This document shows positions 15,155 through 59,355 of a stretch of 64,000 nucleotides of DNA, one piece after another. This stretch comes from a virus (taxonomy: Duplodnaviria > Caudoviricetes). The stretch lies in IMG/VR virus record IMGVR_UViG_3300028832_000100; one strand, 5' to 3'. The notes under the pieces are model-generated. The model saw only the letters and a program-made list of their open reading frames with translations, was not told the origin of the DNA and did no database searches. The position numbers were made by a program, and so were the translations under genes. The first letter of the stretch is position 1. The number at the start of each line of letters is the position of its first letter.

Positions 15155-15818
15155 TGTAAGGGTTCATATAAACGGCAGAAAAGTCTGCCATGTGTAAAAC
15201 AGCAGCAAGAGGATGTTTTCTATATACCTCTCCAAGACTTTCTACATTCAGCACGTTAGAGTCAAACGGACCTGCATGGTGAAGAATAGCACAAGATTCT
15301 TCAATGTTGATTGGCATAAAGCACCTAACAATATATTCCGATTCTTGACCACGAGATCCATAGCAGAATCTTTCAGACGCATCTCTAACCTTAAATGCTT
15401 TTTGTGCAACCCAGTCAAATTTTCCAATTTCATCGGACTTGCTTCCAAACGAAGAATACACCTTCTTGTTTTGCACATATTCTTCATACAAATTAGACTT
15501 GCTGATGTCATGCAATAAGCATACAATAGCAATAGAAGTTTCTGCATCTTCTGACAATGCAAGCTTATCAACTAAACTTCTGTTGTTGTTAAGGAATGAC
15601 ATACCAAAAGAATAAACAGAAAGACAGTGCTCACACAAGCCACCTTCATAAGCACCATAACTCTTCGTTGAAGCCGGTGCATGGAAAAACCTGTGAGAGT
15701 TTAGATATTCTGCAAGGCTGTCTAAACGAAATGACGGTCTTTTTTCCTTTATTTTCTGTAACAAAGATAGAAATGTTGACTTGTTGGCTTCAATTTCTTC
15801 TTGTGTAAGAGCCATCAC
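15147..15818 (-). CDS. HD-domain phosphohydrolase
   Basis: APAST..GAYEGGLCEH, LLHDISK, ILHH, LHMAD. Confidence 0.85.
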   Translation of the reverse strand: MMALTQEEIEANKSTFLSLLQKIKEKRPSFRLDSLAEYLNSHRFFHAPASTKSYGAYEGGLCEHCLSVYSFGMSFLNNNRSLVDKLALSEDAETSIAIVCLLHDISKSNLYEEYVQNKKVYSSFGSKSDEIGKFDWVAQKAFKVRDASERFCYGSRGQESEYIVRCFMPINIEESCAILHHAGPFDSNVLNVESLGEVYRKHPLAAVLHMADFSAVYMNPYNE

Positions 15819-16171
15819 ACATATCTCCCAGAGTTCACAAGGTCACGCTTGTAAGCAACACGATCCCCAAATGTGATATTGTCCACACCATAATGATGAC
15901 CGTTGCTCTGAGCGATTCTCTTTAGTCTGTAGTTTGGATCTACACTGTACCGAATGGTACGAACATCCATTTCATACTGCTCTGCAATTTCGTTGTAATT
16001 CCAACCTTTTTTGAGCATCTTTGAAATATTTGCCACATCTGCGGAAGAAAGCTTTCTCTTTCTGTCAAATTCTGTTCCTGTAAGAATGATGGAATGATCT
16101 ACTTCCTTATCATCCATTTTTGAAACTTTCCGTTTCAATCTTGCCGATTTAATAGTTCTGATAATTCCCAT
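15815..16171 (-). CDS. Small HTH DNA-binding protein (putative)
   Basis: ATG at 16171 after GGAG; RKLS..DV..I...GWNYNEIAEQYEMDVRTIRY is HTH-like. Confidence 0.55.
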   Translation of the reverse strand: MGIIRTIKSARLKRKVSKMDDKEVDHSIILTGTEFDRKRKLSSADVANISKMLKKGWNYNEIAEQYEMDVRTIRYSVDPNYRLKRIAQSNGHHYGVDNITFGDRVAYKRDLVNSGRYV

Positions 16172-16184
16172 AATTAAATTCTCC

Positions 16185-16320
16185 GTCAACTACCAACTAC
16201 CTAAAGGTAGATTGGATTTCAAATTTGTTAAAATTTTTCTCGCTCAATGCACCTAACGGTGCAAGTATCAACGAGCTATCCCCACCGTTGCAGTGGTTCT
16301 CTGACGACTAAAGTCACCAG
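16185..16320 (-). mobile_element. Non-autonomous IS200/IS605-like mini element / TnpB omegaRNA-like scaffold
   Basis: Left-end-like hairpin CTGGTGAC-TTTA-GTCGTCAG; AACCACTGCAACGGTGGGGATAGCTCG...CGAG; right-end hairpin CCAATCTACC-TTTA-GGTAGTTGG ending TAGTTGAC; no tnpA or tnpB. Confidence 0.65.
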
Positions 16321-16334
16321 ATATCTTTATTGAG

Positions 16335-16363
16335 ATTATATCACAAAAGCACTGTTTTGTCAA
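16335..16363 (-). promoter_or_regulatory. Host sigmaA-type early promoter
   Basis: tagTTGACA-17-TGaTATAAT. Confidence 0.85.
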
Positions 16364-16719
16364 CTATACTCTTCTTTTAACTTATCCACAAGAAAAGACA
16401 TCAATTTTCCATCAATTATAAAATAGTCTTCTTTATCTTCAAAGAAAAAGTTAAAAGCAATGGCACTATTTTCAAATCTATTGGCGAAAGACTCTTCCTT
16501 GCTCTTTTTTAGCCATTCCTTTTTAATGGAAAACGAATCCTTTGGTGTCATGCAAGTCTTACACTCAATGGATAGGGAAGCCCCATCAACCGATATATCG
16601 GATTTATAAAACTTCCCAGCCCCAGAATTTGAATTTCTTACCCCTCCAAGAAGTTTTGCTACTCTACCTTCTTGTATTTCCGAAGCATATCTTGTTGCGG
16701 ATTTGTTTTTCATTTGCAC
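16360..16719 (-). CDS. PD-(D/E)XK nuclease, Holliday-junction-resolvase-like
   Basis: QE.RVAK.LGG..NSGAG...KSDI...IECKT. Confidence 0.65.
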   Translation of the reverse strand: MQMKNKSATRYASEIQEGRVAKLLGGVRNSNSGAGKFYKSDISVDGASLSIECKTCMTPKDSFSIKKEWLKKSKEESFANRFENSAIAFNFFFEDKEDYFIIDGKLMSFLVDKLKEEYS

Positions 16720-23600: not shown

Positions 23601-25290
23601 TTCGATGGTATATTTTGCATTATGTTATCGTTAGCCTCTTTATGCTAACCTCTATGAGTATGTAGTTTTCCTCATAGTTCAGACTATATCATTAACCTAT
23701 TATAACCTTTCAGTGAAATAGGTTATTGTGCGCTCGTGCGAGAATTATTGATTTTATCTCTCATCTCGTAGTCGTTGCTCCTTCCACAGACTTTCTCTGT
23801 GGCTTGGATCAGGATTGGGACAAAATTTACTACATCCTTTCCCTGAATTCACACAATTTTCATCTCAACATTACTGTTGAGTGCCTCCGTAATTAAAGGT
23901 TTGGATCGCTGGAACTAAATCTTCCTGTATCTGCCCCAAGAGTGTTAAAATGTGCATGAAGTCTATTGTCTTTTACTGAAACTACTTTTGGTAACTTATC
24001 AATATAAGTATTTACTAATTTTAACAAACCTCTCTGCTCTAATATCAGTTTTGTTATTGGCAGATCAATTTGTTTTAGTATTCCTTCTCCTGTTCCTCTT
24101 GGTGTTTTTGGATCAATAACACCAACTTTTAGAATGTCATACAAAAAAACTGCAAGTTGAGATGGACTTGATGTATTTAATGGGTTTTCCACTATATCTA
24201 CATCAAAAAATCTGTATGGTCCTTTTCCATCCATATCGTCAAAAGGATATTTCTTTCTTACAGCAATTGGATCTTTTCTGTCATTAGCACTTGCATATAC
24301 TCTATCAAGTTTATGTTTTTGCTTCCATTCTTCTATGACAGGCTCGTACTCTTTTAGAGCACTTTTAATTCTCTTATCACAATCTTCCAAAAGGAGATTA
24401 TATTTCTTGCTCAAACGATCACAATAAGAAGTATCTAATGCAATCCCGGTAAGTTCCATAGAAGCAGCGACAGAGATGATTGGGAACTCAATCCTAAACA
24501 GCAAATCCAATAACTTCCTATTCTCTGCTTTATTGTATTGAACCCATTGCCAATCATATAACTTCAATGTCATAAACGGGTCTGTCGCTGCATAAAGAGC
24601 AAATACCTCTGGACTTACAACGGCATAATCTATATCCTTGAAAAGATGTTCTATTGAATACTTCTCAATACTTCCATCAATCTTTGAAATGTACTGATCC
24701 TTCAAGGAGTATGACTTTTCATTCTCGTCTAAAATCTTTGCGGCAACAAGTGTGTCCCAATATATTTTAAGATCCACCCCTGTTGTGCATTTTATTACCT
24801 CGTAGTCAAACTTTGCATTATGATAAACAGTTTTTGTATTCTCTAATCGAGAAAATTCTTGCTTAATATCATCTTCTGAAAGTTGGTCTTTCAACCGTTC
24901 TCCGCTATGAGGGTCAACATGGTTCAATGGAATATATGCATTTTTCATTCCATAAGTATAAATACAAGGACCCATTAACTTACAAGTTAGCGGATCCAAA
25001 CTCATGTTTGTTTCGGTATCTATTGCTATTATTCCGTTCTCTATTGCTTTATTGATATATTGATGCAAAGATTCCCTGTCCTTTATAACAACAGTGTTTT
25101 CTGCATACTTGCCAAGTATTCGATATACTTCTTCACGAATCATTCTTAACTTGGTATCTATATCAACCTTACCGCCTGACCGTTTTCTTACTTCTTTTGG
25201 GGAACTAATCTTGTTGAGTACATTTTTGATTGCTTCTAACGAATCTTGTGGGGAGAAAGAATCTCCCCACAAAGATACTTCATAGCCCAT
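20604..25290 (-). CDS. polA: Family A DNA polymerase (3'-5' exonuclease + polymerase), spliced: exons 25290-23896, 23617-23534, 22532-21783, 20876-20604 (833 aa)
   Basis: Exonuclease motifs DTET/HNAKFD/YAATD; joined junctions give TGRFSSSDPNL|QNIP, GSDFG|QQEPR (motif A) and VHD|ELI (motif C); the 84-nt exon 2 was found manually. Confidence 0.93.
20877..21782 (-). mobile_element. Group I intron polA-I3 (906 nt) with LAGLIDADG ORF
   Basis: P1 UACACGAU/GUCGUGUA with U.G; UGCUGG..CAAUCAGCAG (P4); GACUA / GAUAUAGUC (P7); ends in omega-G. Confidence 0.9.
21022..21639 (-). CDS. Intron-encoded LAGLIDADG homing endonuclease
   Basis: LKLGDGC and LYLDDGS double motif; F.IEE..LL. Confidence 0.85.
   Translation of the reverse strand: MNNKLYQLLLSLKLGDGCYITQNVTENKRYRVSTNSIKRDYVEYKRSILESFGLKTKDIKCFSGYNKNSNMYGITTHVTVETTLVGNMSLKSAIEDLDSYGIILLYLDDGSLHKTKHYMHIYCNSFSIEETNLLIDKIFSFYPQKRCALRFDRKKDGRCFPYVYVPKSVACEMNKDVRDFLISNNIDSLLYKTFLPSQTIESIDS
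22533..23533 (-). mobile_element. Group I intron polA-I2 (1001 nt) with GIY-YIG ORF
   Basis: P1 ACUUCGGU/GCUGAAGU; P4 ACGGG/CCCGU; AGAGACUA and GAUAGUCCG core; ends in omega-G. Confidence 0.9.
22672..23370 (-). CDS. Intron-encoded GIY-YIG homing endonuclease with NUMOD3-like repeats
   Basis: IYKITNTINGKVYIGQT, GYN..PGG, SEDTRRKIS / SQETRNKIS. Confidence 0.92.
   Translation of the reverse strand: MIIYKITNTINGKVYIGQTKKSLDDRWKNHMNRYRNHCDYHLYESMRKYGVENFTVEEIDSADNEDDLNYKEMYWISFYNSNSSEFGYNNTPGGDSNPMDSECVKVRHKRRMQSEDTRRKISEKMTAIRKEHGFSQETRNKISNKLKGNTHGKGKKRPIDAIEATARKRRIKVVATSVSDGSDTIFDSVKSAALWVKKNTEFESLSLKHIMSKIKKSDVCKVEFAGMFWKYI
23618..23895 (-). mobile_element. Group I intron polA-I1 (278 nt), no ORF
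   Basis: P1 CCUU/GAGG; P4 UCAGG/CCUGA; AACGACUA and GAUAUAGUCUG; ends in omega-G. Confidence 0.9.
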
Positions 25291-33087: not shown

Positions 33088-33116
33088 ATTATATCACTTA
33101 TTTCTCAATTTGTCAA
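33088..33116 (-). promoter_or_regulatory. Host sigmaA-type early promoter
   Basis: tagTTGACA-17-TGaTATAAT immediately after the structural-operon terminator. Confidence 0.85.
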
Positions 33117-33157: not shown

Positions 33158-33213
33158 GTGAGGGGAACATCCCCATCAGTTGGTGGACCATGATCTTTCG
33201 ATCAGCCCATGTA

Positions 33214-54359: not shown

Positions 54360-57300
54360 TCAGCCAGCAGTAGCAGTGTATACAGGACTTGCGTTAGTAC
54401 CATATACACGAGAAGCACCCTCAACCTTACCTGCAACAAGAAGCAGAGGATTGAGAACCTTCAGATCGTACATTGTGGACCCAATTGTATTTATTATAAG
54501 TCGCTACCTTATAACGGGAATCTTCTTCCCCTCTTACTTTCATAAGAGTTTAGACTATATCTTCATCCTTTTCAGGATGCACACCATTTCGGATTTGCTT
54601 AAATCCTACTCCCATATTTGGGATAGTCGTTGAACCTTCAGATCAAAGATCAGCTTGGCTGCTGATTGCCCATTGCATCTTTCATTTAGGTTTGCGCCTT
54701 GTGAAAATCCATTCTATTGTTTCTACTTTCGTAACCATTTAGGTTAGAATGGCTTTAGGGGTTTCCAGCAATTAAATGTGTTATTTTTACTACACATTAC
54801 TGTGTAGCAGACCTTTACGCTGACTTCTTATGCAGCGTATTCCAAGCCTTGAGTAGTTCCACCGTCGCTGTACTGCAACAGCTGAGTGGGAACAACTGGC
54901 ATATCGTTTATGTTTTATGTGGATCACTACACCACATATTGCTTATTAGCAACTCTATATTTCTATAGAGACCAGACTATATTATCATCTTTTCAGATGT
55001 GTAACCTTTCGGATTCGTTTGAACCCTACACCGCGCTACCGGTTAGTCGTTGAACCTTTTCCTATTCGGAACTTGGCTGCTGATTGCCCAATCCAAATAA
55101 TTTTCAAACATTCGCACTTATCCTTTCAGATTATGCTGTAGTTTATTTGGCTCTAAGGGTTTTCCAGCAATTAGTTACATTATCAATTGATTATTTCTAA
55201 TCAATGCCACTATAGATTGGATTGTTTTTAAGCAACCAATTCTAATGGAGCGTACACAGCTGCACTACTCATCATGTCCTCACCGTTAAGACCAAATGCA
55301 AACTTACCGGATGCAATGGAAGGAGATACAAAGATCTTGATTCCATTATAGGTCTGTTTTCTTTTCTATCAATCGTTACTTGATAGAGATAATTTCTTAT
55401 CCTCTTACTTTCATAAGAGCAGAGACTATATCTTCACCCAACGCATTGGGTGCAACCCATTTCGATACCACTTGATATCTACTCCAGATTTGGTCTGGAT
55501 AGTCGTTGAACCTTTTCCTATTCGGAACTTGGCTGCTGATTACCTAATCATAGCAACTTCTTAAAACTATCACAATTTGGCTTGTTTCATCCATTTGTTG
55601 TAGTGTACTACGCTCTAAAGGTTTTCCAGCAATTAGAGTTGTCTATTATTCTGCACATCTCTGTGCAGCCTGGCTATAAAGTTTAACCAGCAAGATATGG
55701 ACCGTTTACACGGGAGATTCCTTCAGCGGGTTTGAATCCACTAAGGAAGGAAATAACACGAAGAACATCAGGAGCGATCAGCATGTAGTTAGGACTGACT
55801 ATTGTGTTTACTGAAAATCGCTACTTTTCAGCACGATAATATACATGCTTGATATTATCGTCACATACTTTCATATGTGTACAGACTATATCTTCACCCT
55901 ATTTAATAGGGGCAACTCACTTCGATTTCGCTTGAAATCTACTCCATAAAGGATAGTCGTTGGGGCTGTAACTACTTGAGTTCCCTGCCTGCTGATTTCC
56001 CAATCCTCTAACTTTTCAAACCTTCATATCTTCATCGCTGAAATACTGTGGTATAGAGGCTATAAGGGGTTTCCAGCATATCGAGTTGTTTATTTTTACG
56101 CTACATCACTGTAACGAGAAGCTATAAAATTTAACTTCTGAGTTCTGTTGTAAATAATGACACGACCTGCTTCGATGATATCTGCAAATGACTCAAAGTG
56201 CTGAGCCATAGAAATACCAACAGGAACAGTGCGGTCAAAAGTAAGGGTGGCAAGTTCATCAACAGATGTTGCTTCCTCTGCAGTCTTCACAAGAAGATTG
56301 ACTACTTCAGTGTCAATTTCCAAATATGTTACGAATAAGTCAATTTCGCTTATTCTCTATAACTTATGTATTTGTTATAGTTCAGACTATATCATGTACC
56401 TATATTGATTTATCCTTTATAGGTACCCATGCACTTCCACCTCTTTGAGGTGTACTCTACTCATTTATTCATCTGAATATTTCTTTCAGATTATACTTTC
56501 GATAGTCGTTGAGCGTTATTTATTTAGATGATACTATGTACCATCCTTGATTTATATAAGCATCAATATTAAAATCTTGAATCATTCTGTATTTAGGAAA
56601 TATCACATCGTGTGACATTTTTCTTCTTCCTAAATGTGAAAGCCTATCAAGAAGTTTCTGATTTTCTGACTGGGATTTTCCAAACATTCCATTATTTTCA
56701 CCAGACGACAATGCACTGTGTAGCATCTTTAATTCATCTGACTGATGCCAACGATTTCCATAATTACTGTTTTTAGAACCAATTCTTTCGGTTCTAAACT
56801 TTTTCTTCGTTTCATCAGAATGTTTGCGACCTTTGAACATCGGTCCTCCCGGTCCACAATCTCCACCCTTACGTTTGTTGTATCCAACCAATGGGTTTCT
56901 TGAATCTAATTTATCAATCCAGAAGATTTCCTTCTGATTTAATTCATCTAAACTGTCTGCGGAATCTATCATCTCAACAGACAATCTTTCTTCAAGTGGT
57001 ATATTGTCTTGCAAGCATTTCTTTCTTATTCTTGAAATAAGAAGACCACTTCCAACGTACTTAATACCAACAAACTTGCTTGAGTGGTGTTTTCCAACGT
57101 AAATTTTTCCGTTAGATAGATCAGTTGTTTTATAAATATATCCAAACATTTTATACCTCCGAAGTACAAAACATAATAAAAGTGCGGTAATCTGAAATTT
57201 CGGAGATTTCAGAATTGGTAGCTACTCCCTTGTCCCGCACAATATATGATACAATTTTATATTGTGCTTTATATCAAGTTTTCAATAAATCTTCGCTGCT

Positions 57301-59355
57301 GATTGCCATGCAGATGACACTAATCTGCAAGGTTTTCCAGCAATTCACATGGTTTTCACTAATATATTGCTATATTAGGCTACAAAAAGTTTATAGTTCA
57401 GTTCTGCAACAGCACGTTCTGCCAGCTGCTCTCCAAGATCAAAACCATAATCCTGCTTTGCCTGCCATGCAGCAATGTTTGAATAGTACACGGCAATTCT
57501 ACGCGCTTTTGCAAGCAGAGGCATAGCCTTCATCTCAGCAGTGAGAATAGGAAGATCGTTCTGAGGAATGACAACATTATTATAGTTGTAATTGAATACA
57601 ACATTACCAGTGATTCCGCTAGTAAGAGTGATAGCAGGAGTGCCAGTAGAGTAAATCTGTTCAACACCGTTGTAAGCAACACCCTTGGTAGCAGTATTAC
57701 CATAAACGATAGTACCTGCTTCGGATGCGCCAGTAATGTTCTTCACAAAACGACCAGCGACACCTTCGAGATGTCCGTTGTTAGGATCAACTGCTTCGGT
57801 TACATAGTTAGTAACAACTGTAACAGCTGCTCCATCTGCATAACTGTAGATTTTACCGTTACCATCATCAAGGTAGTTAGTGGTGCCAACCTTGAAGGAA
57901 ACGGTGCCGGGGACTACAGGACCCCAGTTAAGAGCGATTGAGGTAGTAGAATCTGCAAAACTCTTGGATTCTTCAACCTTAGATGCTGTGAAATCGGTGT
58001 CAACCTTTCCACGAGCAAAAGGATTCTCAATCAGATCACCAACGCTTGTCTTACCTTTATTTGAGCCATATGAGTATTCAAGATAGTTTACCAATTGTGT
58101 TACGAATACTTCGCTTATAAAAGTATTCTCTGCATATTTCTATGCAGTTCGGACTATATTATCAGCCAAGATTGTTTTGTCCTCTCTTGGTTGCCAGCTC
58201 TTTCCATTCCACTTGGAATGTACTCTACTCACTTCTTCACAAGAATATTTCTTTCTTGCTATGCTTTCGATAGTCTCTGAACCTCCCACTATACAATGGT
58301 TTGGCTGCTGATTGTCCTTTCGGAGTTTCCAGCAATTTAACTGGTTTTTGTCATTCATGTTACCATGAAAGGGTTACGTCATGCTACATAACCACTCATG
58401 CTCGACATCGGGTAAGTAATTACCAAATCACATTTATCTTGCGTGTAAATCGTTTCCACTTACACTCTTATCATCACTGATAAGATGAGACTATATCATA
58501 GTCCAAACTTGATTTATCCTTATTTGGATTCCATGCACTTCGACTTCACTTGAAGCCTACTCTACTCATTTATTCTCTATTGTTTTTCTCAATAGATATA
58601 CTTTCGATAGTCGTTGAACCTTCCTGCCAAATTAGGCAGACTTGGTTGCTGATTGTCTTAATGGCTAATTTTTAAGACTTCCCAGCAATTCACATGGTTT
58701 TTTCTGCAAACATTACTATTTGCAGCCTCTGTTAAAAGGCAATAAGATTTGGTACGGTAATATTTACCAAATTTAGTGCAAATTTCTTAACATTTTTATT
58801 GCAATATGCACAATTATGCATATTTCTTGATATTACTATCAAGATTAGACTATATCATCATCCAATATTGCTTTTACCCTTTATTGGATGCCTCGCGCTT
58901 CGGAAACTTTTGCTCCTACTCTACTCATTTACTCATCATCATTTTTCTTGATAACTACATTTTCGATAGTCGTTAAACCTTCCGTTCAAAGAACGGCTTG
59001 GATTTTTGTTGTCCTACTGATTGCACTATTTCAATAGGAGTTTCAAAAAGTTCACGAGGTTTTCTACATAATATGAATTTAAGGGCTAACTTCTTAAATT
59101 GTTCTCATATCTGTAGGATCTCAATAAATATTACTATTTATTGCTCCTTTATATGGGAAAGAGTCCCATGTCGGAACGCTGGGTTCCAACGGAGTTCTCA
59201 AACTGCTCAGTGAGAAACTTGGAAGTGTTGTCAAGAAGTCTTGCAACAGCAATCTTCTTGGCTTCAGTAATGCGAGTACCGTTGTGTGCCTTCATGTGAA
59301 CACGGTCGGCAACAGCAAGACGGTTCTTGTACTGTTCAAATAGTTTGTTAGCCAT
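54360..59355 (-). CDS. Major capsid protein (T4 gp23-like), 9 exons: 59355-59160, 58790-58736, 58430-58388, 58091-57393, 56320-56134, 55798-55686, 55353-55245, 54904-54845, 54481-54360 (527 aa)
   Basis: Spliced frame is continuous (1584 nt) with gp23-like motifs PNLIAFDLVITYPM, QAKQDYG.D, ELNYEIDTE, PNYML, GPYLAGT, AVYAPYMP, QGWSTMYD; follows the prohead protease. Confidence 0.93.
54482..54844 (-). mobile_element. Group I intron MCP-I8 (363 nt, no ORF)
   Basis: P1 AGGCU|U / AGGUCU; AAUUGCUGG, CAAUCAGCAGCCAAG, AACGACUA, GAUAUAGUCUA; omega-G. Confidence 0.9.
54905..55244 (-). mobile_element. Group I intron MCP-I7 (340 nt, no ORF)
   Basis: P1 CCAU|UA / UAGUGG; same core motifs; omega-G. Confidence 0.9.
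55354..55685 (-). mobile_element. Group I intron MCP-I6 (332 nt, no ORF)
   Basis: P1 CUGGU|UA / UAGCCAG; core motifs; omega-G. Confidence 0.9.
55799..56133 (-). mobile_element. Group I intron MCP-I5 (335 nt, no ORF)
   Basis: P1 AGAAGU|UA / UAGCUUCU; core motifs; omega-G. Confidence 0.9.
56321..57392 (-). mobile_element. Group I intron MCP-I4 (1072 nt) with GIY-YIG ORF between P6 and P7
   Basis: P1 CUAU|AAA / UUUGUAG; core motifs; omega-G. Confidence 0.9.
56520..57149 (-). CDS. Intron-encoded GIY-YIG homing endonuclease with NUMOD3-like repeats
   Basis: GYIYKTT..NGKIYVGKH..Y.GSG, GYN...GG, HSDETKKK. Confidence 0.92.
   Translation of the reverse strand: MFGYIYKTTDLSNGKIYVGKHHSSKFVGIKYVGSGLLISRIRKKCLQDNIPLEERLSVEMIDSADSLDELNQKEIFWIDKLDSRNPLVGYNKRKGGDCGPGGPMFKGRKHSDETKKKFRTERIGSKNSNYGNRWHQSDELKMLHSALSSGENNGMFGKSQSENQKLLDRLSHLGRRKMSHDVIFPKYRMIQDFNIDAYINQGWYIVSSK
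58092..58387 (-). mobile_element. Group I intron MCP-I3 (296 nt, no ORF)
   Basis: P1 GGUUAU|GU / ACGUAACC; AGAGACUA, AUAUAGUCCG; omega-G. Confidence 0.9.
58431..58735 (-). mobile_element. Group I intron MCP-I2 (305 nt, no ORF)
   Basis: P1 GCCUU|U / AGAGGC; core motifs; omega-G. Confidence 0.9.
58791..59159 (-). mobile_element. Group I intron MCP-I1 (369 nt, no ORF)
   Basis: P1 CUCU|UU / AAGGAG; P4 variant UUUUUG/CAAAAA; AACGACUA, GAUAUAGUCUA; omega-G. Confidence 0.88.

Follow-up and report, generated by a model that had tools for sequence, protein, structure and literature searches.

A probable gene-less IS200/IS605 element with a TnpB omegaRNA scaffold behind a consensus promoter of a Clostridia phage

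A structured leader between a resolvase-like and an HTH gene

The window analysed here, a 64,000-nt stretch (64 kb) of a 146,072-bp Caudoviricetes phage contig (IMG/VR record IMGVR_UViG_3300028832_000100), carries at the locus of interest a Holliday-junction-resolvase-like gene (16360–16719; phrog_2002, E 1e-21) and, downstream of it, a gene for a 118-aa protein with weak helix-turn-helix (HTH) matches (15815–16171), of which orthologues occur in contigs L001, L003 and L008/L009. The genes of this region and all features described below lie on the minus strand. Between the two genes is a perfect sigma-A promoter (16335–16363), written as TTGACA-17-TGATATAAT, with TTGACA at 16358–16363, a 17-nt spacer bearing a TG extension, and TATAAT at 16335–16340. 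Its −35 box overlaps the stop codon of the resolvase-like gene, and 163 nt separate its −10 box from the ATG at 16171. The window contains four perfect promoter matches, where 0.2 would be expected; its other consensus promoters, located near 2395, 26170, 32690 and 33088, are followed by leaders that are short and plain. Directly upstream of one of these (33088–33116), a DUF3800-XI RNA was detected at 33162–33209 on the minus strand (Rfam RF02975, 57.4 bits), with a terminator-like hairpin between RNA and promoter.

The leader behind the promoter is occupied by what is very probably a whole gene-less IS200/IS605 element of 151 bp (16185–16335), consisting of a 35-nt left end and a 116-nt omegaRNA scaffold and right end. 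The element is PATE-like because it contains no gene; a single ORF overlaps it, a 31-aa chance frame. The left end (16301–16335) comprises 15 nt (UCUCAAUAAAGAUAU) and a predicted 8-bp hairpin with a UUUA loop (16301–16320; CUGGUGAC-UUUA-GUCGUCAG) that starts 14 nt past the −10 box. The omegaRNA core (16236–16299) is built from P1 (16282–16296), the junction GGAUAG, P2 (CUCG/CGAG), a conserved internal loop (UUGAUACU/UUGAG) and the P3 hairpin (16248–16263), and its motifs CCACUG-CAA-CGGUGG, GGAUAG and CUCG...CGAG span 16239–16296. A 23-nt AU-rich insert (16216–16238) separates P2′ from P4, at a position where most members of the RNA family described below have only AAG. P4 (16193–16215; 9 bp, one bulged U, UUUA loop) is the right-end subterminal hairpin and leads into the tail UAGUUGAC (16185–16192), the element ending after the final C. 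The adjoining 16 nt, GGAGAAUUUAAUUAUG (16169–16184), are the equivalent of a guide; they contain the Shine-Dalgarno sequence (SD; GGAG) and ATG of the next gene, and no second copy of them is present in the 64-kb window. None of the 16 core pairs is disrupted, and the 9-bp P4 and the hairpin of the left end are likewise intact. A JGI contig of the same phage, 99.99% identical, bears the same element.

These hairpins, core motifs, promoter and tail, all on the minus strand, lie at the places given in the original prediction, and the 3′ flank is, as it had claimed, the SD and start codon of an HTH gene. The extent of the unit fared differently. Its first hairpin does start 14 nt past the −10 box, but the proposed length of 136 bp is too short; the element most likely measures 151 bp and begins 15 nt further left, right after TATAA. 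With insertion at that point, the final T of TATAAT would be contributed by the left end as its first base. TATAA (16336–16340) is a putative transposon-adjacent motif as well as part of the −10 box. Because the element is located just past this TATAA, host RNA polymerase should transcribe it as the 5′ leader of the HTH-gene mRNA. The leader folds into four separate hairpin domains, the SD sits unsequestered in an open loop of the minimum free energy (MFE) fold, and no U-run of the terminator type follows P4 in the leader sequence. A tRNA-like reading of GGGGAUAGCUCG... was discarded on a negative ARAGORN result.

The observation that the end octamer of the element, TAGTTGAC, also occurs in the −35 context of early promoters was borne out by counting: it is found six times on the minus strand of the window, at five promoter −35 boxes and at the element end, where about 2.0 occurrences are expected and six were reached in 2 of 100 shuffles. 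Because the family right end elsewhere is almost always TAGTTCAC or GTCAC, this identity is probably incidental.

An RNA family at the 3′ ends of tnpB genes

Sequence searches with the leader itself returned little. Rfam gave no family for the region at gathering or permissive thresholds, even at E ≤ 10; BLAST against INPHARED phages matched the promoter alone; an exact 22-mer of the leader was absent from IMG/VR; and neither BLAST nor nhmmer found anything in 24 syntenic relatives. Homology was first seen by eye in one of these relatives (L020), whose structured leader has helices that differ from those of the window through compensatory changes, and afterwards by pattern and covariance model. 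The family was collected from IMG/VR with a pattern of two shared loops (GTTGATACT, 14–18 nt, TTGAGC), so the intactness of the conserved loops among its members is partly an ascertainment effect, since the pattern required them.

Covariation supports the structure. Across 13 sequences, 92.8% of the cells of the P1/P2/P3 model are paired, compared with 29–42% in slid controls; compensatory changes affect 13 of 16 pairs, and the covariation score was reached by 0 of 500 shuffles. The changes include strand-specific G–U pairs, and the covariation supports the structure on the tnpB-sense strand. In P4, which is at once the last stem of the omegaRNA and the right-end subterminal hairpin, nine of ten predicted pairs covary in the family. 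The covariance model, R1, scores the window copy at 74.5 bits (E ~7e-18), equal to the tnpB-linked copies, other members at 68–82 bits and the copy in L020 at 80.4 bits; it has no match in the other 23 syntenic relatives and no second match within the 64-kb window. Together with an MFE z-score of −3.2 for the leader, this match takes the predicted structure beyond chance, and model scores and covariation also exclude a chance-match reading of the tnpB-linked homologues.

The resemblance to the right ends of tnpB elements, pointed out in the original prediction, is real homology. In six distinct phage contigs and in dozens of Clostridia genomes, a full-length tnpB gene is immediately followed by the same RNA; in the phage contigs, the sequence just before the motif encodes the C-terminus of a 367–420-aa protein. 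All six phage proteins carry the three Pfam domains HTH_OrfB_IS605, OrfB_IS605 and Cas12f1-like TNB, and the linked TnpBs match ISDra2 TnpB over their full length (E 4e-70). In one locus (L046), an IS200-type Y1 transposase gene (tnpA) precedes tnpB. A prokaryote scan restricted to one genome per species gave at least 120 loci; among the matches listed, nearly all are Clostridia metagenome-assembled genomes (Ruminococcus, Lachnospiraceae, Oscillospiraceae and others), many from rumen, and many matches lie at contig ends, as expected of a multicopy insertion sequence. At least 47 copies adjoin tnpB and at least 23 have 1.2 kb or more of upstream sequence and no TnpB, while contig ends cut the upstream sequence of the remaining members. 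The original prediction had named homologues that never adjoin tnpB or tnpA as the outcome that would count against it; instead, tnpB adjoins these many copies and tnpA one. The RNA at tnpB 3′ ends, the right-end boundary described below and the blank Rfam result, which extends to four tnpB-linked loci (no match at E ≤ 0.1), together identify the family as a TnpB omegaRNA outside Rfam 15.

Conservation ends abruptly on the right. Over 105 distinct copies, among the matches listed, information content is ~2 bits up to ...TCAC, the last eight positions of which are fixed by the anchoring pattern, and ~0.1 bit directly after, and the right flanks of the copies are unrelated to each other. Judged from this alignment, the loss of conservation after TCAC is the right end of the transposon. 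The right flank of a TnpB element is the guide of its omegaRNA, and studies from 2021 and 2023 (Karvelis 2021; Altae-Tran 2021; Meers 2023) reportedly describe the flank past the right end in this role. Typical members continue past P2′ with AAG, P4 and then (U)AGUUCAC or AUGUCAC. The tail of the window copy, UAGUUGAC, differs from the family consensus (UAGUUCAC or (U)AUGUCAC), and its terminus is the variant TTGAC. Nearly every other copy terminates in TCAC, and a few in TCAT or similar. A search for members ending in GGTAGTTGAC gave six IMG/VR matches, all of them chance, and IMG/VR yielded no TTGAC variant. Inserts between P2′ and P4 are also present in the tnpB-linked copies L181, L186, L244 and L247.

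On the left, a tnpB-bearing phage element (L064) begins after TATAA with 16 nt ending in AAAGAU, followed by an 8-bp UUUA-loop hairpin; the window element has TATAA, 15 nt ending in AAAGAU and an 8-bp UUUA stem, and the two align when anchored on their hairpin loops. The proposed left boundary of the 151-bp element is drawn from this alignment, which upholds the initial suggestion of a non-autonomous palindrome-associated element and favours a left end over the alternative of a ‘P0’ stem of the omegaRNA for the first hairpin. Bacterial left ends are preceded by TTTAAC in 24 of 27 cases among the matches listed, and are laid out as ~10 nt, AAGAAGUC, a hairpin and then GAUGAAUUGC.

Several other copies have features of their own. 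Three gene-less bacterial copies (L165, L173 and L255) share a conserved stretch of ~150 nt that separates the left end from P1; in it are a promoter-like TGTTATACT and, immediately before P1, a hairpin. In tnpB-linked copies, a hairpin spans the tnpB stop codon at a comparable position, so the omegaRNA may extend 5′ of P1. At L036 (3264–3300, minus strand), an SD-plus-start segment, AAGGAGGAAATCAAATGATATTT, is in tandem duplicate directly past the right end of a tnpB element (..UAUGUCAC). Two IMG/VR contigs from one metagenome (L075, 1–108, minus strand; L089, 1–100, plus strand) start or end inside a gene-less omegaRNA that itself comes directly after TATAA-TCA, and the repeat probably broke both assemblies.

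Syntenic relatives and candidate TnpB sources

Synteny of the replication module (clamp, RecA-like, resolvase, (HTH), HD hydrolase and clamp loader) identified 24 IMG/VR contigs as relatives. The promoter at the resolvase stop codon is kept in all 24, mostly with a plain leader of 30–50 nt, and the orthologous HTH gene is driven from it behind such a short leader. The 151-bp element is absent from 22 of these 24 distant relatives, so it is not the fixed, ordinary leader that the original prediction had set against itself. At the same promoter in L020 (7642–7731, plus strand), directly after TATAA(T), is an omegaRNA of another subtype, in a phage whose RecA-like protein is 51% identical; this copy has no left-end hairpin and a P4 of just 4 bp. 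Either the two copies go back to one ancient insertion, or this −10 box has been targeted more than once.

An exact empty-site allele was not found in a metagenome scan for TGATATAAT, 0–30 nt and then the guide. The sole match is an unrelated bacterial purine-nucleoside-phosphorylase-like gene sharing a 20-nt SD/start sequence, and was rejected: on a bacterial metagenome contig (L280, 2696–2740, plus strand), TGATATAAT, 15 nt and GGAGAATTTAATTATGGGAA follow one another, the 20 nt being identical to the guide and start of the window with no TATAA or TTTAA motif directly before them. Such a match probably arises by chance, SD/start regions being AT-rich. If the element were removed without a scar, TATAA|GGAG would result, in which the −10 box (TATAAG) is poor and no leader is left. 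This leaves the insertion history incompletely explained; either insertion was followed by rearrangement, or the junction of promoter and element has been shaped since. A word index also detected, ~3.5 kb beyond the window, a look-alike stretch sharing 4 of 37 words with the element.

Absence of tnpA and tnpB from the window, noted at the outset, holds under tblastn and a TnpB profile HMM, and no TnpB domains appear in the gene lists of the ~24 kb of flanks of the contig. The window copy is thus an orphan within the 64 kb, adjoining neither tnpB nor the nuclease-dead tldR. A partner in trans is made plausible by two complete phage genomes, G001 (202 kb) and G002 (133 kb), both of which contain gene-less copies and encode a full TnpB elsewhere; nine of ten relatives without gene-less copies have no TnpB, although with these small numbers p is ~0.07. 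The omegaRNAs of the resident TnpBs in both genomes share P1, P4 and tail with the gene-less copy and have a different central domain, so compatibility of these TnpBs with it is not assured. Stages of decay coexist in the genome of a 233-kb relative (G011, the contig of L019). At 228185–228505 (plus strand), a truncated TnpB remnant, a 108-aa open frame, is still followed by a full R1 omegaRNA (68 bits); the omegaRNA that goes with a 393-aa TnpB is divergent (28 bits), and a third fragment is also present.

Possible guide use in trans and rival readings

The best explanation, which we consider somewhat better than even, is a non-autonomous element of the IS605 family that is transcribed from a phage promoter, depends on TnpB in trans for its RNA to act, and would persist by selfish cutting of element-free alleles. 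Its parts differ in strength. That the element is a gene-less, PATE-like IS200/IS605 derivative with a complete omegaRNA is highly probable, while the trans-guide step is tentative and falls short of an even chance. TnpB would be supplied by a tnpB element in another part of this 146-kb phage genome, or by one of the many same-family elements of Clostridia hosts, and the RNA loaded into it would take the 16 nt past ...UUGAC (GGAGAAUUUAAUUAUG) as guide. The predicted cut site has the guide sequence directly after the TATAA motif (TATAA-GGAGAATTTAATTATG), an arrangement that would exist only in an element-free allele, either generated by TnpA excision or carried by a co-infecting sibling phage. 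The phage’s own copy would be protected because TTGAC, not TATAA, precedes the target. Recombinational repair could then copy the element back in, giving selfish retention or homing; where no compatible TnpB is supplied, the RNA would be a mere structured 5′ UTR. This reading is supported by published PATEs, which frequently carry omegaRNAs for which TnpB would have to be provided in trans (PMC10055086). Counting against it are the variant TTGAC end, at the base next to the guide, the 23-nt AU-rich insert, the lack of tnpB and tnpA in the window and of TnpB domains in ~24 kb of flanks, the different central domains of the resident omegaRNAs in G001 and G002, and the negative scan for an empty site.

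The main rival is an inert relic, in which a dead IS200/IS605 remnant has no TnpB user and its RNA is a by-product of the promoter, at most a neutral or stabilizing 5′ UTR. We regard it as possible but doubtful. It would account for the lack of tnpB and tnpA in the window and in ~24 kb of flanks, for the terminus that departs from the TCAC of almost all other copies, and for the additional insert; the syntenic copy in L020, without left-end hairpin and most of P4, is decay-like, and the resident TnpBs of G001 and G002 go with different central omegaRNA domains. However, the 16 core pairs, 9-bp P4 and left-end hairpin of the window copy are whole, its model score equals that of the tnpB-linked copies, and some of those have inserts at the same position. 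Phage genomes also rarely keep 150 bp of junk in an early leader.

Co-option of the scaffold to control the HTH gene, in cis or trans, is much less probable. A TldR-type protein or TnpB might bind or process the leader and so remove the SD-containing guide from the mRNA, or the structure itself might tune translation or stability. The guide-equivalent flank is exactly SD plus ATG, TnpB processes its own transcript into omegaRNA (PMC10278001), and guided TldR repressors have been described, prophages included (PMC10705468). Against this, the window has neither tldR nor tnpB, the MFE fold leaves the SD in an open loop, no terminator-like U-run follows P4, and the orthologous gene of relatives is read from the same promoter behind a short, plain leader. 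The least probable reading, which we count as refuted, is an ordinary phage leader, riboswitch or small RNA with a superficial resemblance to transposons. It is suggested by a structured RNA directly behind a promoter and outside any Rfam family, and it conflicts with the homology, covariation included, to RNAs at tnpB 3′ ends, with absence from 22 of 24 syntenic relatives and with left and right ends of transposon type. A Put-like antitermination RNA or attenuator, considered for its position behind the promoter, was dropped on the tnpB linkage and the lack of a U-run terminator.

A broader version of guide use in trans, which we consider unlikely, would have several promoter-driven, protein-free omegaRNA genes sitting at TATAA (−10-like) motifs, with SD/start regions as guides and one or two phage TnpBs serving all of them. 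Such a dispersed multi-guide system would act on co-infecting sibling phages, by exclusion or conversion, at several loci simultaneously, and in function it would be intermediate between the lone guide of a transposon and a CRISPR-like array. In this version, −10 boxes of phage early promoters may also be preferred targets of the same lineage of insertion sequences, with the omegaRNA at the same promoter in L020 as an independent case.

Bacteria are already known to contain guide mini-elements of this stand-alone type, and the window copy is a clean additional example. Geobacillus stearothermophilus IS200/IS605 PATEs encode omegaRNAs (Meers et al. 2023, PMC10055086), so the window element is no new kind. 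Both are gene-less members of the same transposon superfamily with left and right hairpins and an omegaRNA that would need TnpB in trans; unlike the PATEs of a bacterial chromosome, the window copy resides in a large virulent-type Clostridia phage, right behind a phage −10 box and hence phage-promoter-driven, with a guide over SD and start codon and a TTGAC variant end. The ISDra2 TnpB–omegaRNA (reRNA; structures 8BF8, 8EXA and 8H1J) likewise has its RNA at the tnpB 3′ end and right end and takes as guide the flank past the element end, but it belongs to another RNA sequence family, its TAM is TTGAT rather than the TTTAAC or TATAA found here, and the window copy is without tnpB. TldR guide RNAs (Wiegand et al., PMC10705468) share the TnpB-type scaffold, could have a guide that addresses a promoter or ribosome-binding site, and also occur in phage-related DNA; they adjoin tldR, whereas the window copy has no such gene and its guide matches only its own flank. 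What is particular here is the phage location, the −10-box insertion, the SD/start as would-be guide, a further occurrence at this promoter in a distantly related phage and an omegaRNA family outside Rfam. The locus offers a well-delimited natural stand-alone TnpB guide-RNA gene in a phage, under a host-type consensus promoter and with a ribosome-binding site as its would-be guide, and the family it belongs to is widespread in Clostridia and their phages, with P1, a P2/P3 domain with the loop UUGAUACU/UUGAG, P4, a TCAC end and the putative TAMs TTTAAC and TATAA.

Cutting of an element-free co-infecting allele with spread by repair is also the outcome of phage homing endonucleases, intronless homing and transposon non-restorative homing, and co-infecting phages are listed among the targets of the last of these (review, PMC13565253). 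The specificity of the window element would differ in being RNA-guided, with the nuclease encoded elsewhere. If phage or host TnpB does use such RNAs in trans, co-infecting phages would compete by RNA-guided homing in addition to homing through introns and endonucleases.

Group I introns and homing endonuclease genes are already numerous in this phage. Rfam detects nine group I introns in the window (54531–59106 and 23660–23906, both minus strand), eight of them packed within ~4.6 kb and one near 23.7 kb, in the region of the family A DNA polymerase gene. According to the gene lists, that gene is in pieces with GIY-YIG and LAGLIDADG endonuclease genes between them, and beyond the low end of the window are an NrdD split by an HNH gene, a DNA methylase, a Tad3-like protein, a Thg1-like protein, a KTI12-like kinase and an RNA ligase containing an intein with a LAGLIDADG domain.
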